A program made the translations under genes and the position numbers. From an uncultured delta proteobacterium (GTDB taxonomy: Bacteria; Desulfobacterota; Binatia; Binatales; Binataceae), in contig CAVVGR010000007.1 of NCBI GenBank assembly GCA_963747845.1, positions 194,025 through 258,024 of the forward strand: 64,000 bases of DNA. Direction: 5' to 3'. This document shows positions 17,712 through 46,301 of this stretch, one piece after another. The notes beneath the pieces were generated by a model that saw nothing but the letters and a program-made list of their open reading frames with translations, searched no databases and had not been told where the DNA came from. The number at the start of each line of letters is the position of its first letter. Position 1 is the first letter of the stretch.

Positions 17712-17787
17712 TCCTCTCCCTGCAAGGGAGAGGATGAAGGTGAGGGTCCTTATACAGCGCGCATCCTTTGCGCGCGATTCAAGATTC
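17712..17787 (+). repeat. REP/terminator-like element family B, copy 1 (directly after the ilvB stop)
   Basis: tcctctccctgcaagggagaggatgaaggtgagggtccttatacagcgcgcatcctttgcgcgcgattcaagattc is nearly identical to 31320-31392 and degenerate at 53551-53655. It has two hairpins (ctctccc/gggagag and gcgcgc/gcgcgc). Confidence 0.9.
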
Positions 17788-17849
17788 TGCCAATGCCAAA
17801 TTGATGCGAGTGTCGGGACTTAGACCTCCGCGCAACGAATGAGGCAAGC

Positions 17850-17893
17850 AACCTAACCCCTAACCCCTTCCCCTGGTGGAAGGGGAACCGGAT
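17850..17893 (-). repeat. REP-like element family A, right copy of the 44-bp inverted pair
   Basis: aacctaacccctaaccccttcccctggtggaaggggaaccggat is the exact reverse complement of 15354-15397. Confidence 0.95.
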
Positions 17894-17910
17894 TGAAGAG
17901 AGGTGCACCA

Positions 17911-18456: not shown

Positions 18457-18547
18457 CAGGCTTGATTCCATTGACAACGGCGGCCCGCCGGTGCGACTTT
18501 CCAGAAGTTCGCTAATTCGACGTATCAGCTAATCGGAGGGTTGAGCC

Positions 18548-24955: not shown

Positions 24956-26711
24956 TCAATGACTATTGGCGTGCGGCGGAAATGATATCGCAGTGAGGTG
25001 ACTGACTATTGGCGAGGGCGAAGGGTTTGTACCCTTGAATACACCTTGCAGCGCATAGTATCCCGCCCGCGGCGTCAGGATGTCGGCGCCGCCGTTCAGC
25101 GATCGCTCGCCGTCACTGATTTTGAGTACGGGATCTGAGGCACGACGTCCGGGATTTGGCGCAACTGACATCAGACCGAACCATTCTTCGTCCCAGTAGG
25201 ACGAGAAGCCGCCGCGCCCAGGCTCGCCGAACGGAAATGTGCTCGTGAGTATCGTCGTGTCGTGCGACGACCAGGTTGCCGGCCGGCGCTGCGCTTCCTT
25301 CCACCATTCGTCCTGAAATTCGAACAGGTAGCCGCCCGACAGAATGCCGCCGCCGGCCGTGGAGAGGGTCGAATGAGGCCCGTACATGTCGGTTGCGATT
25401 TCTTCAATCAGCCTGGCCGCGCGATATCCGGCTGCGCCGTGAAATTCGCCTCTCACAGAAGGGCTTGCGCTTACCCATTGCGGGTTCGGCGGCGCGGGCG
25501 GCTGTCCCTCGCGGGTTCGAATCGAGGCCGGCGCGCCCCATTCCGTAAAAATCATCGGCTTGGGCGCGGGATTGGGAGCTTCGCGGTCCTTCTCGGTACC
25601 GCTCGTATAGTAGCCATCGACTATCCAACGCTTGAACTGCGCCGCTTCCTCGGTCTCGGGGCTCCGATAGGCGTTGAAGCCCCAGACGTCGAGCGCATAG
25701 ATGTCGGCGGGGTACGCTCGACGCCGATGCGCAGACGTGCAATCAACGCCCACGTGAGCGCCGTTCGGATCGACGCAGAGCGGAACGGTTTGACCGCCAA
25801 TGTGGGCATCAGCGGCATCCTTGAAAGCGACCAGCGGCTTGACGAGCATCGGCTTCTCGGAAGTAGGGTAGTCCGCGAACGCCGACATAGTCAGTTTGCC
25901 GGGTGCGTAGTGCTTTACGATGGCGCCCAGCCGATTGAGATACTGCCAATAGTCAATGTACCTGTCGGTGCCCTGCGCGAGCGGAAGATTTGTTTCGTTG
26001 CCAATAGCAAATCCAAGTACCGCAGGATGATAGCCATAACGCTGCGCCAGCCACTGAGTAGTGCGCTCGATAAACATTCGCTCGTTATGCATCAGCGTGG
26101 AATCGGAATTGGCGCCCGGAAAGCTGTACCAGGGATCGATCGAAATACCGATGACTACGTAAATTGGATGGACGCCATGATTCCAGCATAGATCCAGGAA
26201 TTGGTCGCCGCCGTCATGCGCCGGCCACGCCGCGAATCCGGCAGGCGCCGCGCTCGCGCCGTAGCGTACCCTTGGCGTTACGCTCCAATCGAGCGTGTTC
26301 CACTTCGCATAGTCGGCCGGCACCATCGGAACCCATTTCCACCAGGCGTACGTGCGAATGCTGTTTGCGCCGAGCTGGCGGACGAGCCCGTCGGGAAGGT
26401 TGACGCGTGCATCGTTGTAGGTCGCGCCCCAGAGGTCGCGCTGCCAGATTGGACCGTAGGTAAGATGAGCAGGATCTCCCCAGAAGTAGTCGGTGCCGGG
26501 AAACGTCATCGCGGCGTCGTTGATCGGGCGCGGGGAATAATCGACGCCCTTGATTATGAACGGTTTGGGTGTGCTGCCGTCGACCGAGAGCAGGATCGTT
26601 TTGCGATCGCCGGCGACCGACCACCGCGTAGTCGACGAAGCAGGCGGCAGCAGCGTAGTCGAGTAAGCGGCGGACGCGTTCAGCGCGATCGCGAGCGCGA
26701 CGACCGCAAGC
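24956..26711 (-). CDS. secreted glycoside hydrolase, clan GH-A TIM-barrel type (family not assigned); start codon unresolved
   Basis: ORF 24956-26509 has acid/base LGFAIGNETN and nucleophile IFTEWG. The same frame extends upstream as LAVVALAIALNASAAYS...KPFIIKGVDYSPRPIN (signal peptide) but is preceded directly by TAG (26714-26712), with no start codon in frame. Confidence 0.6.
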
Positions 26712-27368: not shown

Positions 27369-29060
27369 GTGCGGAGGCAGGATAGGGCGATGGCGGCAAG
27401 CACTTCCACGACCGCGCCGGTCCGCATCGTGGCCCTCGGCGGGCTGGGCGAGATCGGTCTGAATCTGATGGCGATCGAATGCGCGGGGCGCGCGATCGTA
27501 ATCGATTGCGGCGTGATGTTCCCCGACGAGCCCGCGCTCGGACTCGGCACCTTCATCCCCGAAATGGCATGGCTCGAGCGCAGCCGCGTCGCGGTCGAGG
27601 CCGTCGTTCTCACGCACGCGCACGAGGATCATATCGGCGCGCTGCCCCATCTGCTGCGCCGCTTCAATGTTCCCGTTTATGGCACCGACATTACCCTCGC
27701 CTTCACTCGGCGGCGGCTTGCCGATTCAGAGTTTGACGATCCGGTCGATCTGCGGACGATAACGCCGCGTACTGCTTTCGAGGCCGGCCCGTTCACCATC
27801 GAGCCGATTCGCGTCACCCATTCGACGCCCAACGCGATCGCACTCGCGATTCGAACTCCCGCGGGCATCATTGTGCATAGCGGCGACTTCAAGATTGACG
27901 ACGCTCCCGTTGACGGCGCGCTGTTCGATCGCGAACGCTTCGCCGAGCTTGGCGCGGAAGGCGTCGCTCTGTTGCTCTCGGATTCGACCAACGTCGAGCG
28001 CCCCGGCCGCTCGGGCTCGGAAAGTTCGCTCAAGCCCGTGCTGCGCGAGCTCACCTCGCGCACGCGCGGCAGATTTTTCCTGTCGGCCTTCTCGTCGCAT
28101 CTGCATCGGATTCGCCAGGTGGCCGAGGTCTCGCGCGAGTTCGGCCGCCGCGTCGTTCCGCTCGGACGCGCGATGGCGGAGAGCGTGCGGCTCGGTCTCG
28201 AGACCGGCCAGCTGCCGTTCGGGCGCGCGATGTTCGTCGACCCGGGCGAGGCGGAGTTTATCGACGGCAACCGGCTGAGCTATCTCACCAGCGGCAGCCA
28301 GGGCGAACCGCTGTCTGCGCTGGCGAAACTCGCCACCGACGCGCACCCGCGCGTGCGTATCGAGCATGGCGACGTGGTCGTGCTGTCGTCGCGATTCATC
28401 CCCGGCAACGAGCGCACGATCAACACGCTCGTGAATCGTCTCTACCGCCAGGGCGCCGACGTCGTGTACGACGCCGTCGCTCCGGTGCACGTGTCGGGGC
28501 ACGCCAGCCAGGACGAGCTGGCCGAGCTGATCACGCTCACGCGTCCGCGGCACTTCGTCCCGATTCATGGCGAGTATCGTCATCTGAGCCGTCACGTCGC
28601 GCTTGCGATCGCGGCCGGAATTCCTGAACACGACTGCTTTCTGCTCGAGGACGGCGATTCGCTCGTGCTCAACGGTGGCGAGGCGCGTCGCGGAACAACA
28701 GTCGAGGCAGGCCGCGTGATGCTCGAAGGAGTTGACGGTGGCGATCCCGCGATAGTCAGCGAGCGGCGCGTGCTCGCGCGCGACGGCACGGTGACGGCGA
28801 TCGTAGTGCTCTCAGCGAAAACCGGGCGCATCGTCGCCGGACCCGATCTGCTTTCGCGCGGGCTCGTGAGCGGCGACGGAACTTCGGATCACATGCGCCG
28901 CGCGAAAGAGGAATTGAGCCGCCGGCTGGGCGCGCTCGGCGGCTCGCTGCATGCCAACGATCCTCGCGTCAAGGAAGAAATCGTGCGCGCGATTCGTCGC
29001 TACTTCAGCGACGAGCTGGGCAAGCGGCCGCTGGTGATTCCTTACGTGACGGAGGTGTGA
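27369..29060 (+). CDS. rnj: ribonuclease J
   Basis: Intact 563 aa with VRIVALGGLGEIGLNLMAIE, metallo-beta-lactamase motif LTHAHEDHIGALP, and the beta-CASP and C-terminal domains. An alternative start is ATG 27390. Confidence 0.9.
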   Translation: MRRQDRAMAASTSTTAPVRIVALGGLGEIGLNLMAIECAGRAIVIDCGVMFPDEPALGLGTFIPEMAWLERSRVAVEAVVLTHAHEDHIGALPHLLRRFNVPVYGTDITLAFTRRRLADSEFDDPVDLRTITPRTAFEAGPFTIEPIRVTHSTPNAIALAIRTPAGIIVHSGDFKIDDAPVDGALFDRERFAELGAEGVALLLSDSTNVERPGRSGSESSLKPVLRELTSRTRGRFFLSAFSSHLHRIRQVAEVSREFGRRVVPLGRAMAESVRLGLETGQLPFGRAMFVDPGEAEFIDGNRLSYLTSGSQGEPLSALAKLATDAHPRVRIEHGDVVVLSSRFIPGNERTINTLVNRLYRQGADVVYDAVAPVHVSGHASQDELAELITLTRPRHFVPIHGEYRHLSRHVALAIAAGIPEHDCFLLEDGDSLVLNGGEARRGTTVEAGRVMLEGVDGGDPAIVSERRVLARDGTVTAIVVLSAKTGRIVAGPDLLSRGLVSGDGTSDHMRRAKEELSRRLGALGGSLHANDPRVKEEIVRAIRRYFSDELGKRPLVIPYVTEV

Positions 29061-31304
29061 CCCTCATCGCGCGCAAGGAAAAAACGCCGGTCGAGCTTCC
29101 GCCTTCGCCTCCAGTCGAGGAAGTTTCGCTCGCGCCCGGCCCGGGCATCCGCATCGCGCGCGAACTATGCGCACTTGCGCTGCTCGCGTTCGCGGCGTTC
29201 GGCACCGTCAGCCTCATCAGCGTCGACCTCGGTCGTAGCCTCAACCTCGGCGGCCCGGTCGGAGCGGCGATCGCGGCGACTCTCGGCGGCCTGATTGGTT
29301 ACGAGTCGTACACCGCGATGATTCTCGTCGCGTGGCTGGCGCAGCGCGTATGGACGGGCGCAGGAGTCGTCACTATCGCGCGTGAGATCGGCGGCGGTGC
29401 GCTGCTAATTCTCGCGCTCGCGACCGCTGGCGCGCTCTGGGATCTGCACGACCCGCGGATGGGCGGTCAAATCGGCGCGAATGTCGCGCATTCAACTCAG
29501 CGATTCGCTCAACGTCGCCGGCGGCTTGATTGCGGTTGCGCTTGGATTGATCTGCGGGCTGGCCCTGATGCTCAAGCGGGCGCCGACCGAGCTGGTCGCA
29601 GGAGTCGCCGGCAAGATTCGGCCGCGTTCGCGCCGCGAAGTCTTCGAACTTACAGGTGGCGAATCGCATTCGCCGTTCGCTTTAGGCGCGGGCGACGAAG
29701 TCGATGTCGATACCGACACCGCGAATGGTCGGCCCACGCCCTTGAAAGTCAGGCTGCTCGATATTCGCGAGAAGCGCGACAAGATTGCCGCCGCGAAGCC
29801 GCGCCAGAAAGGCGCATTCAAGCTTCCGCCGCAGTCGCTGCTGGATTTGCCGCCCGCCGAGCATGCGCAGGTCGACGAGAGCCAGCTCGAGCGCAGCGCG
29901 CGCGTGCTCGAGCAGAAGCTCGCGGACTTCGGCGTCGAGGGGCGCGTCGTCGAAGTGCAGCCGGGGCCCGTCGTCACGATGTACAAGTTCGAGCCGGGCT
30001 CCGGAATCAAGGTCAGCCAGATTGTAAATCTCGCCGACGATCTCTCGATGGCTCTGCGAGCCGCCGCGGTCAGAATCCAGGCGCCCGTGCCCGGCGAGGC
30101 CGTAGTCGGAATCGAGGTGCCGAACAAGAAGCGCGAACGCGTTTTCCTGCGCGAGATTCTCGAGGCCGACGAATTTTCGTCCGCGCAAAGCCAGCTCACT
30201 ATCGCGCTCGGCAAGGATATCGCGGGCCGTCCGGTCGCCGCCGATCTCGCCAAGATGCCTCATCTGCTGATCGCGGGCGCGACCGGAACCGGCAAATCGG
30301 TTTCGCTCCACACCATGATCGCGTCGATCCTGTTCAACGCGACCGCCGACGACGTGCGCCTGATTCTCGTCGATCCGAAGATGCTCGAGTTGTCGGTTTA
30401 CGAAAATATTCCGCATCTGCTGGTGCCCGTCGTCGTCGATCCGCAGAAGGCCGCGTCCGCGCTGCTGTGGGCGACGCAGGAGATGGAGAGCCGTTACCTC
30501 AAGATGCGCGAGCTGGGCGTGCGCAATATCGACGGCTACAACCAGGCGCTCGCGTCGGGCGTGTCGATCACGCAGCTCAAGATGGCGGGACAGAGCGTGC
30601 CGGCGTCGGACGATCCGAATCAGCCGGCGGTCGGCGCGATCGAGCATCGCAAGCTGCCGAAGATCGTCATCATCATCGACGAGCTCGCCGACTTGCTGCT
30701 GAGCGAGGGCAAGACCGTCGAGCGCGACATCACGCGCCTCGCGCAAAAGGCGCGCGCCGCGGGCATTCATCTCATCCTGGCGACGCAGCGCCCGTCGGTC
30801 GACGTGATCACCGGCCTTATCAAGGCGAACCTGCCCGCGCGCATCTCACTGCAGGTGACCTCGCGCGTCGATTCGCGCACGATTCTCGACTCGATCGGCG
30901 CCGAGCGCCTGCTGGGCGCGGGCGATATGCTGTTCATGCCGCCCGGCAGCGCCAAGCTTCGCCGCCTGCATGGGCCGTTCGTCGGCGAGCATGAGATTCG
31001 CAAGCTCACCGATTTCCTGCGCGAGCAGGGCGCGCCCGAGTACCGCATGGAAATCCTCGACACCAAGCCGCCCGGCGACGAAGACGGTGACGGACTCGGC
31101 GCCGACATGCAGGACGAGATGTATGATGAAGCGGTGCGGATCGTGATGGAGACCAACCAGGCGTCGATCTCGATGATCCAGCGGCGGCTTCGAATCGGCT
31201 ACAATCGCGCGGCGCGGATGGTCGAGCAGATGGAACGCGAAGGAATCGTGATGCCCGCAGACGGCGCCAAGCCGCGCGAAGTCCGCCTGCGCAGCGTCCG
31301 ATGA
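29057..31304 (+). CDS. ftsK: DNA translocase FtsK/SpoIIIE, one apparent frameshift in the membrane domain
   Basis: The N-terminal TM part is in ORF 29057-30994 up to GGQIGANVA, continued in ORF 29481-31304 (QLSDSLNVAGGLIAVALGLICGLALML). Walker A LIAGATGTGKSVSL, Walker B IVIIIDELADL, and gamma domain SISMIQRRLRIGYNRAARMVEQME. The GTG start overlaps the rnj stop. Confidence 0.93.
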
Positions 31305-35085: not shown

Positions 35086-36879
35086 TCAATCGCTATCGGA
35101 ATCTTCGCTGTCGTCCGTCGCGGTCAGCACCGAGTCGGCGACGCGCGAATATTCGAACATCCCGGCTCCGCGATGAGCGCCGATGCGGAAACTCGCGAAG
35201 CCGAGTGACGTGTAGATGCGCGACTGCTCGGGCCCCGGCCGCGACAGCGGAATGAAGCACTCGACATCGCCTTCGATCTCGCACAACGATCCGTCCGCGC
35301 GTTTCAAACACGCCAAAATACGATGCGGCGGCTCCTCGACCGATGGCGTTTCGATCGTCAGGTCACCCAACTCGCACGGCGACCAGCCGCCGGCGCCCAG
35401 AATCCTGGCGCTCTGATTTGCCGGCGCGTCTGCGGTCGCGACAGCGCGCGCTTCGAGCGCACGCGGCGCTTCTTCGTCGTCGAAAGAAGCCCAGATCATT
35501 CTGCGCGTGGTGAATTTCTGCGGCCCCAGTCCGGTGAACGACATCCCGGCGCGCGCAAATCCCCGCACCGTCCGGGTCGCGCCGTCCAGGCGAACCTGTC
35601 CCGCAATTCGGCCGAACGCGGCGCTAGAAGACGGCGCATCCTGCGGCGCGCCTGACGAAGCGAGTATCCGGTCGAAGTCGAATTCGCCGCCCGCGCGATC
35701 AATCTCAAATCGCACGTCGACTTCGGCGGCGCAATCCAGCCGTCCCGACGCCAGCGCGCGTTCGATGCTCAGATATGCGGTGGCGTCCGGCACAATGACG
35801 GCAGGGCCATGGAATGCGAGCACAATCGAGTCGCCATCGCGCGTCAACGAGAGCGGGCCGTGGGTGACGGCGCTCGCGGAACGCGCCGGCCGGCCTTCGG
35901 CGGTGAACAATGCCGCGCGATGTCCATCGAACAGCATCATGATTCGCGCGCCCATGCCCGCGCCGCCGACGTCGAAGCTCGCCATCGCGCCGAACCGCGC
36001 CGCAGGGTCGTAAAATTCGATGCCGACGCGGCCGGGCGCCGCAACCGTCGCGGCTGCGCCGATTTCGGATTTGGCCACCGCCGGGCGCGGTGCACGATTC
36101 ACGACGATCGGCGCGCGAGCGGCGTGCGGCTCCGCGCCGTCGGCCGAGAAGACCTCGGCGATCGCGTCTTCGCATCGCGCGCGCAGGTCGCCGGGCATCC
36201 TGAGTGCGACCGAGAGTTCCAGTTGGGCCGCGTCGACGACACCGCGCATCGAAATTTCGGAGATCGATCTCAGCGGCGCGTTCGGACTCTCGCGATGACG
36301 TGCGGTGAATGCCTGCAACAGATTCTGCAAGCCGCCGCCCGGGTATCGCATGCCGTAAGTCGGCTTGATCCCGTGGCGACGCAGGCGTTCAGCCAGTCCG
36401 GCGAGCGGGCCGTTGATAAAGTCGTCGCACGCCGAGACGCATGCGGAGCCGGGCGGCCGCAGCTCGCCACCGGCGCTTCGTAGTCCCAGTCCGAAATCGA
36501 GGCGCGGCTCGATAATGTTCCAGCCGTGGATGAGCAGCACCGTGACGTGGCCATGGCGTGCGACGATTGCGTCGACGCGCTCCGCGATCATCTCGAGCAG
36601 CCACGGCGCACGCTCGATTATTTGCGAGACGCGGTTGCAGTCGAGCCGGTTGCGATCCATCGCGACGTTGATCAGCGCCGACGCGCCGAGCCGCGCCGCA
36701 AGTCCGCGCGTGATGTCGGCCGTGTGCAGGTCGTTGACCTTGGGATTCAGCAGCGAGCGCGTGCGCGGCTCAGCGCGTCCGCCGTGCGGCGCAATCAGCA
36801 GCAGCGGAGAATCGCAATCGATCACCTCGAGCCATGACTCGGAGGCGGCGTTCGCGGTATGAAGCCCGGACGCCGGCAT
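35086..36879 (-). CDS. two-domain protein: N-terminal N-formylglutamate-amidohydrolase-like (FGase-like) fold plus ~350-aa C-terminal domain of unknown function
   Basis: LLLIAPHGGRAEPRTR...NDLHTADITRGLAARLGASALINVAMDRNRLDCNR...VLLIHGW resembles the FGase family pattern. I do not recognise the C-terminal part (...GMFEYSRVADS, acidic tail DDSEDSDSD). The ATG directly abuts the pcs stop (TGAATG). Confidence 0.45.
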   Translation of the reverse strand: MPASGLHTANAASESWLEVIDCDSPLLLIAPHGGRAEPRTRSLLNPKVNDLHTADITRGLAARLGASALINVAMDRNRLDCNRVSQIIERAPWLLEMIAERVDAIVARHGHVTVLLIHGWNIIEPRLDFGLGLRSAGGELRPPGSACVSACDDFINGPLAGLAERLRRHGIKPTYGMRYPGGGLQNLLQAFTARHRESPNAPLRSISEISMRGVVDAAQLELSVALRMPGDLRARCEDAIAEVFSADGAEPHAARAPIVVNRAPRPAVAKSEIGAAATVAAPGRVGIEFYDPAARFGAMASFDVGGAGMGARIMMLFDGHRAALFTAEGRPARSASAVTHGPLSLTRDGDSIVLAFHGPAVIVPDATAYLSIERALASGRLDCAAEVDVRFEIDRAGGEFDFDRILASSGAPQDAPSSSAAFGRIAGQVRLDGATRTVRGFARAGMSFTGLGPQKFTTRRMIWASFDDEEAPRALEARAVATADAPANQSARILGAGGWSPCELGDLTIETPSVEEPPHRILACLKRADGSLCEIEGDVECFIPLSRPGPEQSRIYTSLGFASFRIGAHRGAGMFEYSRVADSVLTATDDSEDSDSD

Positions 36880-37647
36880 TCAGATCGACGCAGCCCGATG
36901 AAGCTTGAGCGCGGCACGCGCCTGCAGCACGAACGACGCGATGAAGTAGTACGCGATGTAACTCAGCCCGGCCCACAACATGACGCGGTTCACCTCCGGC
37001 AGCATCAGCAGCGACGCGACCGTCAAAAAGCCCCAGATGATTCCGAGCGTGAGCGTGATCGGGCGCAGCGGGACGGTTCGATTTGGATAGATGTATTTGA
37101 GCGGCAGAAACACCATCACGCCGAGCAGCATCAGGATCGCGACGTTGAAGACGGTGCTGGCGCCGAGACAGTAAAGATAAAACGCGACGAGATTCCAGTA
37201 ATTCGGGAAGCCGAGGAAGTAGTGGTCCGGCGTTTTGGCTTCGGTGTGGCAGAACCCGTACACGCTCGCGAGCATTACGAAACACGCCAGCGCCAGGCCC
37301 CATCGCGAATCCGGGATGATGCCGGCCTCGAGCATCAGGAACACCGGCGCCACGGTGTAGGTCAGGTAGTCGACGATGTTGTCGAGCAGCGCGCCGTCGA
37401 AGGTCGGCACCCGAGTCTTGACCATCAGCCAGCGCGCAAGCGGACCGTCGCTGCAATCGATGATGGTCGCCGCGCCCATCGCCAGGAACGACTCGCGGTA
37501 GTCGCCGCGCGAGGCGAAAAATATCGCGAGCAGGCCGAGCGCCGCGCCCAGCGCGGTATATAGATGTACGCCCCACGCGCAGGCCGTGAGAAATTTCTGC
37601 CTCGGCAAGAGTCGCGGCAGATTTGCGGCTGCGCCTGATGAGGTCAA
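36880..37647 (-). CDS. pcs: phosphatidylcholine synthase (CDP-diacylglycerol--choline O-phosphatidyltransferase)
   Basis: Eight-TM protein with CDP-alcohol motif DCSDGPLARWLMVKTRVPTFDGALLDNIVDYLTY. Pcs-specific blocks are WGVHLYTALGA, HYFLGFPNYWNLVAFYLY and FLPLKYIYPNRTVPLRP, which closely parallel rhizobial Pcs as I remember it. TTG start. Confidence 0.85.
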   Translation of the reverse strand: MTSSGAAANLPRLLPRQKFLTACAWGVHLYTALGAALGLLAIFFASRGDYRESFLAMGAATIIDCSDGPLARWLMVKTRVPTFDGALLDNIVDYLTYTVAPVFLMLEAGIIPDSRWGLALACFVMLASVYGFCHTEAKTPDHYFLGFPNYWNLVAFYLYCLGASTVFNVAILMLLGVMVFLPLKYIYPNRTVPLRPITLTLGIIWGFLTVASLLMLPEVNRVMLWAGLSYIAYYFIASFVLQARAALKLHRAASI

Positions 37648-37648
37648 G

Positions 37649-38185
37649 TCATTTGTCCGGCTTGAAATCGCGCGGCCCGAAGTATTCTTCGAGCACGGTC
37701 ATGAACGGTCCGCATGCGCGATGCTGTTTCACGAGCTTCATCGCCTCTTCGAGAGACATTTGCCGATATGCACGCAGGAACGCAATCGCCAGCGTCGGCG
37801 CGCGATTCATCCCCGCGTTGCAATGCAGGTAGACGCGCGAGCCGTCGCCGACCAGGTCGCGCAGGTCGTGCAGCGCAACCTCGAGCCGCTCGGCCATCGC
37901 GTCCGCGCTGCCATCCTGAATCGGCGTGCGCACGTAGTCGATCCCGTGCGCGTCGTATTCGGCACTCAGCTCGCGGTTATCCAACCCGTTCATCCGCAGG
38001 TCGTCGTCGTCCTGCAGATTGTGAACCGCGGTGATTCCGTAGGTGTCCTTGAGCCAGCCGATATCGGCCTGGCTGGGATACTCGCCGACCAACAACTCGT
38101 CCGAGATAACGCTGACCGACGGCCGCCGGTCGCCGCGACTGGGCCGCGCGCCGTTGTCAGGCCGTTTGCTGAACCAATCAACCAT
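37649..38185 (-). CDS. dual-specificity (CX5R) phosphatase-fold protein
   Basis: Active-site loop VYLHCNAGMNRAPT (HCxxGxxR) in a 178-aa, DSP-sized protein. Confidence 0.75.
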   Translation of the reverse strand: MVDWFSKRPDNGARPSRGDRRPSVSVISDELLVGEYPSQADIGWLKDTYGITAVHNLQDDDDLRMNGLDNRELSAEYDAHGIDYVRTPIQDGSADAMAERLEVALHDLRDLVGDGSRVYLHCNAGMNRAPTLAIAFLRAYRQMSLEEAMKLVKQHRACGPFMTVLEEYFGPRDFKPDK

Positions 38186-38251
38186 TACCCAAATGTAACC
38201 ATCCGGCGGGTAAGTATTCCAGCGTCAGCTTGACGCCGCGACGCCGAGCCA

Positions 38252-41200
38252 TCACGCCTTGGCGTGGCCGCGCGGCAGCTCCGGCGAACGATCGCTCCGC
38301 GAGCGCGCGTGCTTGACCGGTTCGACGCCGTTGGAAGCTTGCGTCGATTGCGTCGAGGCACGAGGCAGGCGTGAGCGCGATCCGGATAGCGCGATGACCG
38401 CCGCGCGCATCATGTCGGAAATCTTGCGATACGCACCGGCGCCTTCGGAACTCGCCGCCAGCTCGCGCAGCTCGTCCGCCGTAATCGCGCGACCGATGCG
38501 GACTTCCACCGGATGGCGCCGCGGGATGAGACTGCCCTTGCCCATCACGTCATGCGTGCCGCGAATCAGCACCGGCAGCACGTCGCATCGGCTGCGCAGC
38601 GCCAGGAATCCCGCGCCGCTCTTGAACTCGTGGATCTCGCCGTCGGCCGAGCGCGTGCCCTCGGGGAACATCAGCACGCTGCGCCCCTGCGCAAGCTCGG
38701 CCAGCGCGTCTTCGAGCGATTCGAGTTGTGCGCGTTCGCGATCGAACGGCATCAGCGAGGTGAAGTTCGACGCGAGAAACCGCCGCGCCGGCGTGTTGAA
38801 GAAATAATCCCTGGCGGCGAGCACGCGGATGTCGTCGCCGATTGCGCCGAGCGCATGACCGACCAGGCTGAAGTCGAGATGACTCGAATGATTCGCGACG
38901 ACGATGAAGTTGCGATTGACCGGGATGTTGCCGCGCCCCAGAACCTTCGGCTTCAGCCATCCGTCGAAAATCGCGCGCTCTGCTCCTCGGACAGCGAAGC
39001 GGCCGAGCCACTTCAACGGCGCCGGCAGGTGCACGGTATAAGGCTCGGCGAACTTTGCGTACGACGGCATCCGCGGACGAGCGTTGCCGCCCGGCTGCGC
39101 GGCGAGAAGTTGCAGATCGCCGACGGTGCGCACGTCGGAAATTTCCTCCAGCGCTATCTCGCGGCTCGCGCGCTCGCCAATCAGCTCGCCGATTTCCGCA
39201 AGCGCGAGCGAGTCGAGACCCAGGTCCTCGATCAAGCGGGTCGCCGGCGTGATGTTGACCGGCTCGGTGGCGATCAGCGCGAGCGCCTCGGCCAGCCACG
39301 TCTCGACTTCGGAGTTGGCGCTATCGGCGTCGGCGTCGCTCGCGCGAACGTCGAGCATCCGGCGCAGCGTCGCGGCCACGTCGGCGCGTTTGATCTTGCG
39401 GGTGCGCGTGCGCGGCAGTTCGGCGTCGGTGAAGCGCAGGATGCGGATGCGCTTGTGCACGCTGAGTTCGCGCGCGACCTTGTCGAAGTCGCTGCGCAGC
39501 CGATCCTCGACGGCTCGCCGGCTCTCGCCGCGCGCGTACGCGGGCACGACCATCGCCGCAACCTGCTCGCCCTGGCCGACCTTCAAGCCGACCACCGCCA
39601 TCTCCTTGACGTACTGCGAACGGCCGTAAATTTCTTCGAGCTCTTCGATATAGATGTTGTTGCCGCCGGAATCGACGATGACTTCCTTGGCGCGGCCGAC
39701 GATGTACAAACGCCCGTCGTCGTCGAAGCGCCCGAGGTCGCCCGTGTGAAGCCATCCGTCGACGAGAACTTCGGCGGTCGCGGCTTCGTTGCGATAGTAA
39801 CCCGCCATCACGTTGGGCCCGTGCGCTACTATCTCGCCAATCGATCCGGTCGCGGGCGCGAGTTTGATCTCGACGCCGTTCAGCGGTCTTCCCACCGCGC
39901 CGACTTGCAGCGGTTCGTCGGGCCGCGCGACCGCGAGCACCGGCGCACCTTCAGTCAGACCGTAGCCTTCGAGCAGCGGGATGCCGATGTCGTTGAAAAA
40001 CTCGGCGACGCGATGGGGCAGGGCGGATCCGCCGCTGACGGCAAGCCGCAGCCGTCCGCCCAGTGCGGAATGAACCTGGCGGAAAACGATCGAGCCGAAG
40101 TTGAGGCCCGAGTTCGCGTCGAGCCGGCGATTGAGGTCGCGCAGGTTGTCGAAGGCGGCGTGAAAAAACGGACCGCGCGCTTCGACTTCGTCCACGATGC
40201 GCCGATGGACCGCCTCCCACACCGCGGGCACTCCGATCAGCGCGGTCGGGCGCACGTCGGCGAGCGTGCGCGAGAGCGTCTTCGCATCGACTTCGAGCGG
40301 ATAGACGATCGTCGCGCCGCTGGCGAGCGGCAGCAGCATCCCGCAAGTGAACTCGAACGCGTGATGCAGCGGGAGCAGCGACAGGACCACGTCGTCAGCG
40401 CCGAGAATAAAGACGCGCGACAGCATCGCCACTTCGGCGGCGAAGTTGCCGTGCGACAGCATCACGCCCTTGGGCGTGCCGGTGCTGCCGGACGTGAAGA
40501 GGATCGAGGCCAGCGCTTTTCGCTCAGGCGGCGCGGGCGGAGTCTTCGCGTCGCCGCGCAGGATGAACGGACGCGCGAGCTCGGCGAGATCGAGCTCGAT
40601 GAGTTTCGGATAAGCGTCGGCAAGCCCCGCGCCGAGGCGTTGGTGGACCGCGCTCGAGCGCAGCGCAGCCGTGGGCTCGGCGATTTTGCAAAGTGGCGCG
40701 AGCTCTTCGGCGGAAATCAACTGATCGAGCGGCACGGCAATCGCGCCCGCGCACAGAATTGCGAAGTAGCCGAGCACCCAATCGGGCGAGTTCTCGCCTA
40801 TCAGCAGCACGCGGTCGCCAGGCTTGATGCCGCGCGTCGCCAGTAGCAAGGCCGCGCGATGCGCACGGTCGCGCAGCTCGCGATAAGTGGTCGGCGTCTG
40901 CTCGCCCGACGGCCGGCGCGCGATCATCGCAACGCGCGAGCCGTAGCGGTCGGCGGCGCGATCGAGCATGTCGACCAGGCTGCGATGACGCGGCAGCGAC
41001 TTGGCCCGGCCGCGCGTGTGGAGATCGAGCTGCGGGAAGATGTGCCGACGCAGGCCCGGCAAGTGAATGTTGATCCAGTAGTCGCGCCAGTCGATCAAGT
41101 CGGGGCGAAACGGATGATGCTCGGCGTCGGCCGGCTTGAGGCTCGCGTACAGCTCGCGAATATTGGCGCCGTGAAAAGTATAGATGAGCTTCTGGATGTA

Positions 41201-42576
41201 GGGGCGATAGACCTCGACCAGGTCGCGCGCGAGGTCGGTGTTCTCCTTGAATTTGTCGATTGCGCCTTCGATTTTCTTCGCGCGCTGATTTTCTTCGCCG
41301 ACAACGCTGCGCGCGAACGCCGCCGCCTGCTTGAGAATCTGCGGAACCCTGTTGCTGGCGAGGTCGTAAGTGTTCTGAGAGACGACGACCGCTTCCAGAT
41401 GAGGCCCCAACCAGCGCATCGTGCCGCCGTCCTTGCGATGCTCGCGGCGATTGCTGAGCGCAGTCAGCTCGACCAGCCGGCGCATCGGCAGCGGATTCCG
41501 ATCCGAAGTGCAGAGCTGGTAGATGGGCTTGTGCTTGCGTGTGAGCAGCGCGCCGAGAATCGGAATCATCGCATGCGCCGCGAGATCGACCGGGATCACG
41601 TCGAGCACGAGCTCCGCTTTCGCGGGATAGAACCGGTAGCCGCGCCCCGCGAGATAAGTCAGCGGCGCGCTGGTGTTGACGCCCTGGTTCCATCCGGGAA
41701 ACGGATCGCGCAGCGCGCTTTCAATAATTGCCGGACGGACGACCGTGACGTTGAGCGTGTCGCGATGCGCGAGCACGAGCTGCTCGCCGAGGCTCTTGGT
41801 GTAGCTGTACGTGTTGGGCCATCCCCAGGTCTGCGCGCGCTCGCGCCCAACTTCCTTGAGCCGCTCCTCGACCCATTGCTTGCGCCGATGCTCGACCGAC
41901 GACTCGCGCGGCGCGTCAGCGTCGCCGTCGTCGCCACGAAACTCCGCGTGACGAAGCTGATCGCGCGACTCGGCCTGCACGCGCTCGATCGCAGCCAGCG
42001 CGTCGCGAATCTCGCGCTCAAGGCGGAACGACTTGCGCCCGTCCGGGACTCCAGTCCTGCGGGATGTCGTCTTCGTAGCGATGGCCGTCGGCCGCGCCCG
42101 CGACGTAGCACGTCGACACATGCACCATCGCGGCTCCCAGCTTGCGGCAAAACTCGATCACGTTGGCGACGCCGGTCGTGTTGACCTCGATGGCCTTTTC
42201 GAGCGACGCCTCGAAGTTCACGAGGCCCGCGCTATGCACGACGGCGTCGAGAGCTGCCCGGCTTGAACGGCGTCGCATCATCGGCGAGCAGGCCGTTGTT
42301 GGTGATGTCGCCGGGCACGATGACGATCTTTTCTTCGATGTAGCGATCGAACCTGTCGCCGAGATGTTCGCGCAGCGGGCCGAACACCGGCGAGTCGAGA
42401 ATCTCGCGCCGAAAGCGGCCGTTGCTGCTGCGCCGGTCGCCGCGAATCAGCAGGTAGACGCGGTCGAGCTCGGGATGCCATCGCAGGAGGACCGCGAGGA
42501 ACACTTTGCCGAGAAAGCCGGTCGCGCCGGTGAGCAGGATGCGCCGGCCTTTGAAGATCTGCTCGAGCGGCGGCAT
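38252..42576 (-). CDS. multidomain lipid megasynthase: fatty-acyl reductase (SDR-e) - acyl-AMP ligase - acyl carrier domain - 1-acylglycerol-3-phosphate-type acyltransferase (ElbD-like domain set); two apparent frameshifts in the reductase domain
   Basis: ORFs 42232-42738 (start ATG 42576: MPPLEQIFKGRRILLTGATGFLGKV), 42018-42281 (VHSAGLVNFEASL...VHVSTCYVAG) and 38252-42121. Motifs are YSYTKSLGE, FTSGSTGTPKGV, GYGLTEGAP, HTGDLGRFDDDGRLYIVGRAKE, PRTRTRKIKR, LGLDSLALAE, VVANHSSHLD and MFPEGTRS. Confidence 0.85.
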
Positions 42577-42620
42577 TCGTTGACGCGGTGCGCGCCGCCG
42601 CGCTGTTTCGTTTGCCGTTG

Positions 42621-44262
42621 CTACTCGACATCGGCGATCACCAGCGGCGGCAGATGCAGGTAGGTTATCGAGGCCGAGCGTCCCAGCTCCGAAGTCGCCA
42701 TCGCAATTGCCTCGTCGAGCGTGTCGGCCGCTTCCCATCCCAGCCGCGCCGCCACCTCAGGCTCCTCGCATCCCGCCGCGATCACGCGCCCGACATGCTG
42801 GCGCGCCGGCTCGCCCCAGTACCACATGTAGAACGGATGCACGCCGTGGTACGCGTTGCCGTAGCGGTACATGTGGATATAGGTCGGGTTGCGCGCGAAC
42901 TCGCGCTCGAAAGTTTTCTCGAGCTCGACGGCGTCGGTCGTCTCGGCGAGGCATCGATGGAAAAACTCGATGTAGCTCGGATGATGCTCGGGATGAAACT
43001 CGTCGCGCAGCGGATGACAGATGATCATCGTACCGCCTTCACGCACCAGCGGCTTGTTGCGATACATGTTGAACAGGTAGCCGAGCCCGGTGCATTGCAC
43101 GAGCACGGGGTTCATTATCGAGTTCACGTTGTACGGACAGACGTACGGAACACCGACGATTAGTATGTCGGCCTGTCCTTTCACCGGCACCGCATACTGC
43201 TGGAACACGCGCGCGAGCGCCTTCTGATGCACCGTCTCGGTATCGCCCGCCCACACGCCGATCATCCCGTACGGCGCCGCGTAGTTGTGGAGCATCGTGC
43301 GGCGCATCTCGTTCGACATGTTCCGCATCGTCCACTGGAAGCCTTTCAGGCGCGTGCGATCCCAATCGGTGAAGTGGTCCTCGTTCTTGTGCAGGAAGTC
43401 GAGCATCCCGCCGTACATCCGCGTGTTCACCGCAGTTTCGATCTGAAAAATCTTGACCGACTTGTGAATCAGCTTGCCCATCCGGTCCGACGATCGATGC
43501 AGCGCCGAGCGCGTCGGGTCCATGTACGAGTGCGAATCGCGCAGCGTGCCGACGTTGTGGTGATGACGCAGGCTCTGGTACGGCGCGAGGCCGACGGCGA
43601 CCGACTTGTGCCCGCCGTCCATCGGCACCAGGTTGATGTTCAAATAAATGAGCAGGTCCGACTCCGCCGCGCGCCGCGACAGCCACACTTCCTCGCCATG
43701 CTCGGTCTTGCCGAGCATCGCCAGCTCGGCGCGATTCTCCGCGTCGAAGTTGTAGAGCCGGTCCGGCCAGTACTGCTTGAATGCGCGCTCGCCGACCACG
43801 CGGCGAATCTCGGCTTCCGTCATCCGCCGATGCAGCGAGGTCGCGATCACGAGATGCACGTCGTCGACGCCGTAGTCGGCCAGCGTCTGCAGCACCTGGT
43901 TAAGCAGGCGCTCGCGAATGTCGGGCCGGCGCATCTGCGGCAGCGGCAGGCTGATGTCGTCGATCGCGATCGTCACGCGCATGTTGGGGCTGAGCTGCGC
44001 GAACAGCGGGTCCTGATTTTCGGGATGGAGCAGGGCGTAGCGAACGGCCTGGTCGGGGTCGGCCAGCGGATCCATCGGCGGCGGCGGATAGATGACGCGG
44101 GTGCCGACCGGCAATTTCTCGAACAGAAATTCCTCGCCGTACGGGAATGATGCGGCGCTCGGAGCGTCGATTGACCCTGACGACCAGGTCGCTGCGCGCG
44201 CCGACCTCGTGCCGCAGCTCGGCGGTTTTCAGTTCCTTGAGTTTTCCTTCAGGCCGCGCCAT
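42621..44262 (-). CDS. LarA-like (lactate racemase N-terminal domain / DUF2088) protein, one apparent frameshift
   Basis: ORF 42621-44114 with [12 protein letters not shown] and [28 protein letters not shown]. The N-terminus in ORF 43900-44262 ([40 protein letters not shown]) joins [20 protein letters not shown] after removal of one base at about 44140. Confidence 0.65.
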
Positions 44263-45070
44263 TCGAGCCTCGCGTCGATTGTTCGCTGTCGTGGTTGAGT
44301 TCCAGGTGGCTGTCGAAATCGCCGGCCTGCGCCGAGTCCGCGGCTTTCTCGAAATGGATGACCGGCCATTGCCGGCTGAGCGCCGCGGCGCGCAACCTGC
44401 GGTCGGGATTGACGGCGACGGGATGGCCGAGCGCGGCGAGAAACGCGGTGTCGTAATGCGAGTCGGCGTAACCCCAGCAATCCGCCAGTTTCATATCGTG
44501 CGCGGCGGCGTAGTCCGCGCACCAGACCGCTTTCTCGTCGCCTGCCATCACGGGTTCAGCGAGCCGGCCCGTCGCGCGGCCGCGGCTGAAGACAAAACGG
44601 TTGGCGGCGAAATCCGCAATCCCAAGATGACGCGCCAGCGGCGCGACGACGAAATCCGGCGATCCGGTTACGAGCACCGGATCGATCCCGGCCTCGCGAT
44701 TCGCCTCGATCAACTCGACTGCGCGCGGAAACAGATGGCCGATGAGGACGCGATCGCAATATTCCTCGCCGAGCGAGAACAGCCGATCGCGCGACACGCC
44801 CTTGAACGCCTCGAACAGCACCGTGTTCAGCAGCCGGCGGTCGCGCTGTTCGGCGATATACAAGCGGGGGATACGCGCGGCGAAACCGAGCAGGTACGAC
44901 ACGCGCCCGGACCATTCGCCGACGTTGGCGAGGGTGAAAACAGCCGCGTGCACGAGATTGGTATCGACCAGCGTCCCGTCCAGATCGTAAAAGGCCACGC
45001 GGCGCCTGGAGGCCTTCAAACCCTTGTGGGCGTGGCCATTTGTGGCTTTTTTGGTAGCGTAAACTGACAT
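44249..45070 (-). CDS. HAD-IB subfamily hydrolase (SerB-like phosphatase fold)
   Basis: Motif I AFYDLDGTLVD, motif II VLVTGSPDF and motif IV GYADSHYDTAFL. ATG lies 1 nt after the tetR stop, and the 3' end overlaps the next gene by 14 nt. Confidence 0.8.
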   Translation of the reverse strand: MSVYATKKATNGHAHKGLKASRRRVAFYDLDGTLVDTNLVHAAVFTLANVGEWSGRVSYLLGFAARIPRLYIAEQRDRRLLNTVLFEAFKGVSRDRLFSLGEEYCDRVLIGHLFPRAVELIEANREAGIDPVLVTGSPDFVVAPLARHLGIADFAANRFVFSRGRATGRLAEPVMAGDEKAVWCADYAAAHDMKLADCWGYADSHYDTAFLAALGHPVAVNPDRRLRAAALSRQWPVIHFEKAADSAQAGDFDSHLELNHDSEQSTRGSNGAA

Positions 45071-45071
45071 G

Positions 45072-45740
45072 TCAGTCTAGTTTTGTCACAAAAAAAGACT
45101 CGTTCGCGGATGCCGCTTTGCCTGCTGCCGGTGCCAGTTGCGGCACGAACTTGAACAGCTCGGGACGCGCGACGCCGCTGAGACCGAACTGCAGGATTTC
45201 TTCGACCAGCGCCGAGATGTCGGTCTCGTTGCTGCGCGAAAGCATCCCGATCACTTCCTTGATTCCGCCCAGGATTGCGTAGGAGACCGCGCGCGTATCC
45301 GAGTTGCGCACCAGGCTCATCTCGATCCCGAGATCGAGCGAGCGTTTGATCAGCGCCGCGATGCGGTCGTAGAAATCCTGGATCTTGTCGTCGAGCTCGT
45401 GGTCGAAGCCGGTCGAATGGTTGAGCAGGATGTCGGTGAGCTCGCGCTCGGCGAGCACGTAGCTCAGCACCCGCGTCAGGTTCGCGCGCAACTGATCGAC
45501 GGGATCCGCTTCGCCCGGTCCGACCCGCAGCCGCTGAACGCGCTGGGTCAACTCGTTGACGACCTGCTCGAGCAACTCCTCGAACAGGTCTTTCTTGTTC
45601 TGGAAATAGAGATAGAACGTGCCACGCGCGATGCGCGCGCGCGCAATGATGTCCGCGACATTGGTCCTGTGATATCCCTTGCGGGCAAAGATGCGCTTGG
45701 CGTGGCGCAGCACTTGGGCGCGTCGGGCTTGGCGTTCCAT
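45072..45740 (-). CDS. TetR/AcrR-family transcriptional regulator (first gene of the operon)
   Basis: HTH AKRIFARKGYHRTNVADIIARARIARGTFYLYFQNKKDLF in a 222-aa protein. Confidence 0.9.
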   Translation of the reverse strand: MERQARRAQVLRHAKRIFARKGYHRTNVADIIARARIARGTFYLYFQNKKDLFEELLEQVVNELTQRVQRLRVGPGEADPVDQLRANLTRVLSYVLAERELTDILLNHSTGFDHELDDKIQDFYDRIAALIKRSLDLGIEMSLVRNSDTRAVSYAILGGIKEVIGMLSRSNETDISALVEEILQFGLSGVARPELFKFVPQLAPAAGKAASANESFFVTKLD

Positions 45741-45801
45741 CGGGATCTCGGTGCGCGGTTTTCTCCGTGCGGAGGTCCCAAGCTAGTCGGGGTTTTCCAC
45801 A

Positions 45802-45819
45802 GTGTCAAACATGTTACAC
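45802..45819. promoter_or_regulatory. imperfect palindrome, candidate TetR operator
   Basis: gtgtcaaaCATGttacac lies in the 108-bp tetR / PPOX-gene divergent region. The arms match except for one extra base. Confidence 0.25.
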
Positions 45820-45848
45820 GGATACTACGAAACGGCGGAGGCATTCAG

Positions 45849-46301
45849 ATGAGCGACTCAAAATTCTGGGACAAGGTTCACGCGGCGGCAGCAAAGGCGA
45901 CGTGGGCATATCTCGCGACTGCAGATGGCGCGCAGCCCAAGGTCCGCGTCGTGCATCCTGCATTTGAAGGCGAGCGCGTGTGGGTCGCGACCGGGCGCGC
46001 GTCGGCTAAGGCTCGGCACGTCGACAAGAATCCCAAGGTCGAGCTCTTCTACCAGATTGGCGACGGAATGGTTCATCTCACGGTTACAGGCAAGGCAAAA
46101 TTCGTGGAGGACGCTACTGAAAAAAAGCGAATCTGGGACGGCAAAGTCTTCGACTACGATCTGTCGCAGTTCTGGCCCGGTGGCGCGGCGTCGAAGGATT
46201 TCGGGCTGATGCTGATAACGCCGGATCGGGTCGAGCTGACGTCGCTGCCGGAGATGACGACGGGCAAGAAGCCGGAGGTGTGGCGGGCGTCGCGGAAGTA
46301 G
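45849..46301 (+). CDS. pyridoxamine 5'-phosphate oxidase-like (general stress protein 26-like) FMN-binding protein
   Basis: MSDSKFWDKVHAAAAKATWAYLATADGAQPKVRVVHPAFEGERVWVATGRASAKARHVDKNPKVELFY...KKRIWDG, the 3' part of ORF 45138-46301. Confidence 0.7.
   Translation: MSDSKFWDKVHAAAAKATWAYLATADGAQPKVRVVHPAFEGERVWVATGRASAKARHVDKNPKVELFYQIGDGMVHLTVTGKAKFVEDATEKKRIWDGKVFDYDLSQFWPGGAASKDFGLMLITPDRVELTSLPEMTTGKKPEVWRASRK

Follow-up and report, generated by a model that had tools for sequence, protein, structure and literature searches.

Gene content and organization of the cluster

We analyzed a 64,000-nt stretch of contig CAVVGR010000007.1 (GenBank assembly GCA_963747845.1; hereafter, the window), which derives from Candidatus Binatus (Binataceae) and whose minus strand carries seven co-directional genes at positions 35086 to 45740 that resemble, in part, the ether-lipid (elb) gene cluster of Myxococcus xanthus. 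In the 5' to 3' direction, these encode a TetR-family regulator, a HAD-IB phosphatase, a LarA homologue (LarAH), a multidomain megasynthase, a dual-specificity-fold phosphatase (DSP), a Pcs-like CDP-alcohol phosphatidyltransferase, and a two-domain protein of 597 residues (X597). Families were called by Pfam and NCBIfam profile searches of the open reading frames (ORFs) of the window. This profile annotation upheld both the set of seven minus-strand genes and all seven family assignments of the original prediction, which had been made by reading the sequence alone. The features of the locus are listed below; aa denotes amino acids.

45780 to 45808, minus strand: promoter-like motif TTGACA-N17-TAGCTT, 40-68 nt 5' of the tetR ATG, read from the sequence
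45072 to 45740, minus strand: TetR-family regulator, 222 aa (Pfam TetR_N, 58 bits, and TetR_C_24)
44249 to 45070, minus strand: HAD-IB phosphatase, 273 aa, at the elbB position (TIGR01490, Pfam HAD)
42621 to 44262, minus strand: LarAH14/15/16 homologue, 546 aa after repair, at the elbC position (NF052592)
38252 to 42631, minus strand: ElbD-type megasynthase, 1440-1457 aa after repair, with an alternative start at ATG 42576
41036 to 42576, minus strand: fatty-acyl reductase domain of the megasynthase (NAD_binding_4 and Sterile; Pfam, both fragments)
39395 to 40966, minus strand: adenylation (acyl-AMP ligase) domain of the megasynthase (AMP-binding, 270 bits, and AMP-binding_C)
39113 to 39295, minus strand: carrier-protein (PP-binding) domain of the megasynthase (22.4 bits versus a cut-off of 20.8)
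38564 to 38947, minus strand: PlsC/AGPAT-type acyltransferase domain of the megasynthase (Acyltransferase, 84.6 bits)
38186 to 38251, minus strand: 66-nt spacer separating the modules, containing a hairpin GCGTCA-N3-TGACGC and an A/T-rich TACATT box
37649 to 38185, minus strand: DSP with a CX5R motif, 178 aa (DSPc, 62 bits)
36880 to 37647, minus strand: Pcs-like CDP-alcohol phosphatidyltransferase, 255 aa, TTG start (NCBIfam Pcs models)
35086 to 36879, minus strand: X597, 597 aa, with an FGase-like N-terminal and an AttH/CrtC-like C-terminal (DUF7064) domain

The window is 96% identical at the DNA level to two ENA contigs, designated here L001 and L002, and the gene calls in L002 gave products of 222 (TetR), 273 (HAD), 546 (LarAH), 1457 (megasynthase), 178 (DSP), 255 (Pcs-like), and 597 (X597) aa. 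The tetR stop and the HAD start are joined as TGAcATG (45074-45068), the HAD and LarAH genes overlap by 14 nt (LarAH ATG at 44262, HAD stop at 44249-44251), the LarAH stop codon lies at 42621-42623, the DSP stop and the pcs start form TGAcTTG, and the pcs stop and the X597 start form TGAATG (36882-36877). The distances in gene order are +1, -14, -11 (or +44), +66, +1, and 0 nt in the window and +1, -14, -11, +66, +1, and 0 nt in L002, with the same spacing in the 73%-identical locus L003, which bears out the tight, operon-like packing described earlier. A shared direction and short or overlapping junctions that are kept in relatives, the marks by which an operon was recognized here, are thus present, and, judged from these conserved junctions, all seven genes would form one TetR-controlled transcription unit.

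Upstream of tetR, a TTGACA or TTGACT box and a downstream (C/T)TAG(C/G) box align in at least 12 Binataceae loci, and the TTGACA-N17-TAGCTT motif may act as the promoter. A generic promoter scan did not list this motif; the promoter and terminator scan returned one promoter-like and 12 terminator-like sites, which is not above the shuffled expectation, and none at the ends of the operon. A search for inverted repeats upstream of tetR that could serve as a TetR operator found nothing, and the half-palindrome GTGTAACATGTTTGACAC, seen by eye and considered as such an operator, was rejected as it is not conserved in relatives. The 66-nt spacer is conserved 5' of the DSP gene across Binataceae loci. 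A sigma-54 reading of its TGGAATAC box was discarded, because the spacing does not fit.

Interrupted reading frames and assembly quality

As ORFs of the window, the LarAH and megasynthase genes are discontinuous. The megasynthase requires three reading frames between 42631 and 42040, while LarAH changes frame near 44142. A base-by-base comparison with L002 traced these breaks to 1-nt insertions near 44142 in LarAH and near 42577, 42252, and 42047 in the megasynthase, four sites that were overlooked when both genes were originally described as continuous ORFs, the latter of about 1440 aa. Removal of one base each at 42252 and 42047 results in a 1440-aa protein that is 98% identical to an intact protein of 1457 aa (P0001). 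The insertion at 42577 adjoins the start codon ATG 42576, and without it the ORF runs to ATG 42631, a start that overlaps the LarAH stop by 11 nt and is called so in both L002 and L003. Therefore, while all the junction letters quoted in the original prediction are exact as read, its 44-nt gap between LarAH and the megasynthase may not exist, because the insertion at 42577 truncates the ORF. In the C-terminal tail of the megasynthase (38338-38353), a 1-nt and a 2-nt insertion relative to L002 leave the net frame unchanged, and the low-complexity tail beyond the acyltransferase domain is variable.

Four frame-breaking 1-nt insertions inside 2.1 kb of the cluster could mean that the cluster is decaying in this strain, the frameshifts being real and the pathway dead. 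We consider this very improbable. The 24 kb common to the window and L002 contain 13 frameshifting 1-nt insertions, that is, about one per 2 kb, and one of these is in the housekeeping gene ftsK. The sister assembly L001, which comes from the same study, has other breaks in the same genes (tetR, HAD, and LarAH), and in L002 the genes are intact. Furthermore, no substitution creates a stop codon, and each frame segment retains 97-100% amino-acid identity. Pseudogenization was rejected on these grounds, and programmed frameshifting was set aside, the shifts being absent from relatives. Because the insertions are spread over the whole window and also hit housekeeping genes, and relatives of 96% identity have the genes intact, we attribute them to errors of long-read assembly and take the genes to be functional in the organism. 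The window has the appearance of a long-read assembly left unpolished, and ORF-based reading of it therefore needs tolerance for frameshifts.

Further insertion sites relative to L002 (compared over 28167-52618) include 29489, 31305, 47091, 47924, 48338, 50503, 50842, 50976, and 51230, and ftsK is split into the overlapping ORFs 29057-30994 and 29481-31304. Split genes are also found elsewhere in the window (13150-14496, 60538-63590, 192-2169, and 15986-17737) and include a DUF1329 gene in two pieces, ComEC as two overlapping ORFs, Lhr winged-helix fragments, and an ORF for a thiamine pyrophosphate enzyme that is devoid of its N-terminal domain. The same type of error probably splits genes outside the stretch comparable with L002, and the breaks in ComEC, DUF1329, and Lhr also speak against decay of the cluster in particular.

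The HAD, LarAH, and megasynthase genes

The first three enzyme genes are referred to as module 1. The HAD-IB protein scored 112.1 bits with TIGR01490 (cut-off 98.3) and 100 bits with Pfam HAD, and it contains a DLDGT motif (DxDxT). The LarAH protein exceeded the cut-off of NF052592 (819 versus 740 bits) on the 497-aa ORF fragment alone, and its orthologues in other phyla scored 811-842 bits. The solved structures nearest to it are 9q2u and 9q3j, LarA-like enzymes with a single histidine (E about 3e-28), whereas LarA itself was found at E 5e-6. Alignment to 9q2u indicated that LarAH keeps the equivalents of LarA His108, of Lys184, which tethers the cofactor covalently, and of the nickel ligand His200, and that the second catalytic histidine (His174 of Lactiplantibacillus plantarum LarA) is replaced by Val, or by Thr/Ser in two loci. 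The residues H144, K219, and H234/H235 are kept in the LarAH proteins of all 83 loci described below, except that H234 is Asn in L067. Thus, LarAH shares with the LarA superfamily the Lar_N domain and the cofactor residues, and differs from it in the missing His174 equivalent, in being about 120 aa longer than LarA, and in its genomic context, which consists of lipid genes rather than hydroxy-acid genes. Absence of His174 has been reported for LarAH groups 14 and 15 (preprint 10.1101/2025.08.19.671153), the Frankia LarAH14 was inactive in all seven hydroxy-acid assays, and Desguin et al. proposed that such LarA homologues might catalyze another hydride-mediated reaction. Among 45 representatives of LarAH14/15/16-like proteins (50%-identity clusters), about 40% keep the His108, Lys184, and His200 equivalents, and many distant members may lack nickel-pincer cofactor binding.

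After repair of the three insertions, the megasynthase comprises a fatty-acyl reductase-like domain (FAR), an acyl-AMP ligase (adenylation, A) domain, a carrier protein (ACP), and an AGPAT/GNPAT-like acyltransferase (AT), in this order. The reductase domain contains the motifs GATGFLG and YSYTK, the adenylation domain TSGSTGTPKG, GYGLTE, and GRAKE, the carrier domain the serine motif LGLDSL, and the acyltransferase domain NHSSHLD (HX4D) and FPEGTR. The Pfam matches and these motifs in the repaired protein substantiate the ElbD-type reductase-adenylase-ACP-acyltransferase architecture that had been predicted. About 2300 homologues were found, the closest being intact proteins of 1438-1460 aa from Candidatus Binatus and other Binataceae, and the same domain order is present in proteins from Myxococcaceae (locus L061) and Acidobacteriota (L019).

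Distribution of the core and its relation to the elb operon

One genome per GTDB species was scanned with an alignment of 14 LarAH sequences, which gave at least 595 relatives. The 80 top-ranking loci, which were taken for comparison, belong to Binataceae, Pyrinomonadaceae and other Acidobacteriota, Myxococcota, Planctomycetota, and Gemmatimonadales, and neighboring genes were assessed in 83 loci by tblastn with the proteins of the window. Nearly all of the 83 have a HAD homologue immediately upstream of LarAH, and in 66 of them, from five phyla, the order is HAD, LarAH, and FAR/A/ACP/AT megasynthase. The Myxococcaceae locus L061 consists of a HAD gene, a LarAH gene (NF052592, 821 bits), a NAD_binding_4-AMP-PP-Acyltransferase gene, and a NAD-epimerase gene, which is the arrangement elbB-elbC-elbD-elbE. 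Compared with orthologues from metagenome-assembled genomes (MAGs) of Myxococcota in such loci, which served as a proxy for M. xanthus ElbD (Q1DC43), the megasynthase is 35-43% identical (in three segments) and LarAH 54-57%.

In M. xanthus, elbABCDE (MXAN_1531-1527; Lorenzen et al. 2014) encodes the NAD-epimerase-family protein ElbA, the HAD phosphohydrolase ElbB, ElbC of unknown function, ElbD, which is composed of FAR, acyl-CoA synthetase, ACP, and AT domains, and a second NAD-epimerase-family protein, ElbE (PMC9131029, PMC13012113); a 2022 review on myxobacteria still described the function of ElbC as unknown (PMC9131029). LarAH groups 14-16 have been tied to COG0204, COG0560, COG1022, COG3320, and COG0451, which are AGPAT, HAD, acyl-CoA-synthetase, thioester-reductase, and NDP-sugar-epimerase kinds, respectively (Desguin 2020, Table S1), an association that matches the elb pattern. 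In the Myxococcaceae locus that corresponds to this operon, a LarA-family gene takes the elbC position. Considering also that the gene and domain order is the same, we regard module 1, with high confidence, as the orthologue set of elbB-elbC-elbD. This set is published, contrary to the earlier statement that no described operon combining these functions was known. No paper in the searchable literature combines "nickel-pincer" with either "ether lipid" or "plasmalogen".

In M. xanthus, both alkyl and vinyl ether lipids are lost when elbD is disrupted or deleted (PMC9131029), and inactivation of elbE lowers the amount of ether lipids (PMC9131029, PMC13012113). Fatty-acid activation and loading by ElbD were shown in vitro, and an ElbD-dependent i15:0 aldehyde was reported, whereas the acyltransferase and the reductase (alcohol-forming) activities were not detected in vitro (PMC9131029). 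This last result would also fit a cluster unrelated to ether lipids, with the megasynthase acting in Aas-like salvage and re-acylation of lysophospholipids, or producing a fatty aldehyde, fatty alcohol, or wax, while LarAH and HAD process a phosphorylated hydroxy-acid or sugar in a manner unrelated to ether formation. The A and AT domains do match models of acyl-[ACP]-phospholipid O-acyltransferase (Aas), albeit far below the cut-off, and all characterized LarA homologues act on 2-hydroxy acids (PMC7583248, PMC11770544). Moreover, the HAD-LarAH pair occurs with no megasynthase nearby in 17 of the 83 loci, which indicates that the pair can work without ElbD and may have an ElbD-independent function. 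Set against these points are the M. xanthus genetics, the inactivity of LarAH14 in the hydroxy-acid assays, and the fact that taxa with the HAD-LarAH-megasynthase triad (Myxococcota and Acidobacteria subdivision 4) are reported makers of non-isoprenoid alkyl glycerol ethers. We therefore find a function without ether lipids quite improbable, and consider that the cluster probably makes ether lipids in this organism.

Loci in which the pair has no ElbD-type gene within 10 kb include L017, L020, L030, L036, L051, L054, L057, and L076; for example, Minicystis rosea CP016211 (10504186-10525742) has a HAD-LarAH14/15/16 pair with no ElbD-type gene within 10 kb, and in L036 the pair is preceded by a SWIB-domain gene and followed by an SBF transporter gene.

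Features specific to the Binataceae loci

What surrounds this core differs between Binataceae (phylum Binatota) and the other hosts, M. xanthus included. Among the 83 loci, a TetR gene heads the cluster in those of Binataceae only. The best NCBIfam match of this regulator was the Bacillus-type fatty-acid regulator FadR, over the full length (65.7 bits versus a cut-off of 200). The regulator is probably FadR-like and responsive to a long-chain acyl ligand, the ligand being only inferred, since the match is well below the cut-off. A tblastn search with the ElbE-like protein of L019 detected such a gene in 37 loci outside Binataceae, in most of them directly after the megasynthase, and in no Binataceae locus nor anywhere in the 64-kb window (E <= 1e-5); hence, the NAD-epimerase/dehydratase-family genes elbE and elbA, which flank the core in elb operons, are missing here. 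The place of elbE in other phyla is taken by the DSP, Pcs-like, and X597 genes (module 2). These three follow module 1 in 12 distinct Binataceae contigs, and one further contig ends after DSP, which makes 13 of the 14 informative loci. The original prediction had named loss of the neighborhood in related genomes as a refutation; the neighborhood is conserved. The order TetR-HAD-LarAH-megasynthase-(PLC)-DSP-Pcs-X597, where PLC stands for phospholipase C, is maintained down to protein identities of about 50-60%, the junctions ranging from -14 to +66 nt, and its retention among Binataceae proteins of such low identity places the gene order beyond chance. In none of the 66 non-Binataceae loci were TetR, DSP, Pcs, X597, or PLC genes found near elbBCD. 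What is specific to this lineage is limited to the tetR gene at the head, the absence of elbE, and the terminal DSP-Pcs-X597 genes.

The related clusters known from other bacteria share the core and differ in their surroundings. In Acidobacteriota subdivision 4 and sponge symbionts, elbD clusters have the elbB and elbD core, and some clades have adjacent phospholipid genes (preprint 10.64898/2026.06.23.733905), as the Binataceae do; however, those genes are for glycerol-3-phosphate acyltransferases as well as diacylglycerol kinases, and pcs is not mentioned. The Pyrinomonadaceae loci that we examined contain elbE and no Pcs, DSP, or X597, unlike Binataceae. The aerobic ether-lipid pathway of eukaryotes and of the MXAN_1676 type (FAR, GNPAT, and AGPS) likewise uses a fatty-acyl reductase and a GNPAT/AGPAT-like acyltransferase function, yet its alkyl-dihydroxyacetone phosphate synthase (AGPS) is absent from the Binataceae cluster.

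DSP scored 62 bits with DSPc (cut-off 33.5) and contains the loop HCNAGMNR (HCX5R) and a candidate general-acid Asp in PIQDG. Its closest solved relatives are the plant glucan phosphatases LSF2 (E 3e-18) and SEX4, and PTPMT1 was detectable at E 1.5e-3; for this reason, we group DSP with the dual-specificity-fold enzymes that act on non-protein phosphates. It shares the CX5R fold with LSF2, SEX4, and PTPMT1, and is devoid of a carbohydrate-binding module. As with PTPMT1, a phosphatidylglycerophosphate (PGP) phosphatase, there is a CDP-alcohol transferase in the picture, the gene of which abuts that of DSP, and the PGP-synthase/PGP-phosphatase logic of PTPMT1 resembles the DSP-Pcs pairing.

For the Pcs-like protein, all five NCBIfam Pcs models ranked first over the full length (E 1e-37 to 1e-57), with PssA next at 8e-9. 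Its segment DGPLARWLMVKTRVPTFDGALLDNIVD fits exactly the motif DGX2ARX8PX3GX3DX3D reported for Legionella Pcs (PMC7867332), and its length of 255 aa agrees with the about 250 aa expected from the bacterial Pcs of Sinorhizobium, Legionella, Pseudomonas, and Borrelia. In contrast to these, it scored 129-192 bits against cut-offs of 300-440, and its gene stands inside an ether-lipid operon beside a phosphatase gene. A homologue search returned essentially Binataceae proteins alone. As a Pcs, the enzyme would condense a CDP-lipid with choline.

The description of X597 as an FGase-like two-domain protein was a fair one. Pfam FGase (PF05013) matched residues 24-85 with 18 bits versus a gathering score of 28.9, and DUF7064 matched weakly. 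There were 559 homologues at E <= 1e-5, and the named ones among the 120 listed are all from Binatus or other Binataceae. AlphaFold models (predicted local distance difference test, pLDDT, of 73 and 76) were compared with Foldseek. The C-terminal half is a double beta-barrel, which matched at E 5e-9 to 1e-6 CghA, Fsa2, 25-phosphosteroid lyase, AttH, and kievitone hydratase, and the top matches of the N-terminal domain were the FGase-family structures 2odf, 2q7s, and YndL (E 1e-5 to 8e-5, probability 1.0, TM 0.41-0.52; model pLDDT 76). The barrel is shared with AttH/CrtC-type hydratases and lyases (the carotenoid 1,2-hydratase family), and the listed relatives act on hydrophobic substrates; unlike those, X597 is fused to an FGase-like domain, and identity is only 9-14%. 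On these models, a hydratase or lyase activity of the AttH/CrtC type on a lipid is no more than a lead for X597.

In five Binataceae loci (L003, L006, L008, L010, and L071), a gene for a Zn-dependent PLC stands between the megasynthase gene and the 66-nt spacer, which would point to phospholipid head-group chemistry. In L003 (14356-15279), this gene is of the phospholipase C/P1-nuclease fold, and its signal peptide ends AFA|W, giving a predicted mature N-terminus of Trp.

These observations bear on whether the two modules work together. They could instead be two independent lipid modules that merely share a transcription unit or a neighborhood, with elbBCD making an ether or neutral lipid (e.g., an alkylglycerol) and DSP-Pcs-X597, with or without PLC, serving general choline and phosphatidylcholine (PC) metabolism on CDP-diacylglycerol, so that no dedicated ether-PC would be formed. 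For example, PLC would free phosphocholine from environmental PC, the phosphatase would free choline from it, and Pcs would make diacyl-PC; PLC, phosphocholine phosphatase, and Pcs in combination are a known logic in Pseudomonas. The signal peptide and the mature N-terminal Trp of PLC, as in secreted Zn-PLCs, in which Trp1 has a role, agree with such a scheme, although phosphocholine would then be released outside the cytoplasm and the phosphatase has no signal peptide, and X597 has no role in it. Further points in its favor are that the sole sizeable gap of the operon, i.e., the conserved 66-nt spacer with its A/T-rich box, divides the modules and is where PLC is inserted, that module 1 outside Binataceae never occurs with such head-group genes, and that locus L011 (DATFSZ010000091.1) has TetR-HAD-LarAH-megasynthase with none of DSP, Pcs, and X597. 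In L011, an 818-aa sulfatase-family gene (16085-18541) follows the megasynthase instead, and head-group modules may be exchangeable. On the other hand, the modules are adjacent and co-directional in all the other informative Binataceae loci, across deep divergence, and module 2 is exactly at the elbE position. We consider the independence of the modules somewhat unlikely.

Proposed pathway

On balance, we lean toward the view that the locus represents the bacterial elb cluster in its Binataceae form and specifies a regulated route to an alkyl-ether glycerolipid, probably with a choline head group. In the proposed route, the A domain of the megasynthase would charge the carrier domain with a long-chain fatty acid, which the reductase domain would turn into a fatty aldehyde or alcohol, and the PlsC-type domain would acylate an acceptor derived from glycerol phosphate. 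LarAH would supply a hydride-transfer step on the glycerol backbone, and the HAD enzyme would remove phosphate. The predicted output of module 1 is a 1-O-alkyl glycerolipid precursor, and module 2 would install or service the choline head group by converting CDP-(alkyl)acylglycerol and choline to a choline phospholipid. The likely end product of such a sequence would be an alkyl-acyl (plasmanyl-type) PC, and alkyl ether lipids with phosphocholine head groups have been reported for Acidobacteria subdivision 4, which have elbD homologues (preprint 10.64898/2026.06.23.733905); that the end product is specifically ether-linked PC is nevertheless a tentative proposal, which we hold with less than even confidence. 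The substrates and products in this organism, the ligand of the regulator, and the link between the modules are inferred, the modules being linked by the conserved operon structure only.

Several points weigh against this route. The 66-nt spacer may carry its own promoter, and the modules are separable, because L011 has module 1 without module 2. An ElbE-like gene is missing from all Binataceae loci. The two ElbD activities not detected in vitro include the alcohol-forming one, and the ether-forming step of the ElbD route is unknown (PMC9131029). No larB, larC, or larE was seen among the ORFs of the window that were scanned, and a Pfam survey of 20 further ORFs of the window found none of larB/C/E, cdsA, AGPS, or choline transport genes. 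The Pcs-like protein is below the equivalog cut-offs (191.8 bits versus 440 for the best model and 129-147 versus 300-400 for the others), and its homologues are labelled "phosphatidylcholine synthase" at JGI and only "CDP-alcohol phosphatidyltransferase family protein" at NCBI. Its lipid substrate may, but need not, be ether-linked. Finally, Binataceae are known here from MAGs alone.

It is also conceivable that LarAH14/15/16 (ElbC) is the enzyme missing from the AGPS-independent pathway of aerobic bacteria, namely the one that forms the ether bond, although we regard this as unlikely. The nickel-pincer cofactor would transiently oxidize the C2 hydroxyl of a glycerol-3-phosphate-based intermediate to a ketone resembling dihydroxyacetone phosphate, the ketone would activate C1 so that it exchanges or condenses with the product of the ElbD reductase domain (fatty alcohol or aldehyde), and the hydride would go back either to the face from which it came or to the carbon derived from the aldehyde ("hydride-borrowing"). 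Such a mechanism would explain why the cofactor residues and one histidine are kept and the second histidine, needed only for inversion, is lost.

Flanking genes and other features of the window

Divergent from tetR is a gene for a PNPOx-like (split-barrel flavin/F420-type) protein (45741-46301, plus strand, ATG near 45849). The divergent region, which contains the promoter-like motif, is 108 nt long, and most Binataceae loci (L001-L003, L005-L007, L009, and L013) retain the two genes in this arrangement; the PNPOx-like gene may belong to the same regulon as the operon. The cluster is flanked by housekeeping genes (the PNPOx-like gene, then Mrp/ParA, DksA, MiaB, LolA, and FtsK downstream) that are syntenic in relatives, and its GC content is unremarkable; an origin by horizontal transfer or from a mobile element is therefore unsupported. 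Neither an Rfam nor a tRNA scan over the full window gave a match. Two minus-strand ORFs with coding-like GC3, 9187-11481 (764 aa) and 24956-26509 (517 aa), had no Pfam match at E <= 1e-5.

Implications

The core of the cluster is already known as elb, while its Binataceae variant was not found described: our literature search returned neither a description of this cluster nor a paper linking Binat* taxa to ether lipids. How the ether bond is formed without AGPS in aerobic bacteria has been open since ElbD was described (PMC9131029). Across phyla, ElbD is constantly accompanied by a HAD phosphatase and by a LarA homologue of the nickel-pincer type that has one catalytic histidine, and this offers a concrete and testable candidate for the missing ether chemistry. 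The Binataceae variant, which is devoid of elbE and has a Pcs-like module and X597 in the operon, represents a natural experiment on the roles of elbE and on the routing of the ether core to head groups. The alkyl-acyl phosphocholine lipids predicted for this uncultured soil and peat lineage are relevant to the source assignment of environmental ether-lipid biomarkers. If LarAH indeed formed the ether bond, its product would be channelled into ether-linked PC, and the abundant Binataceae of soil and peat would be a source of environmental alkyl glycerol ethers.

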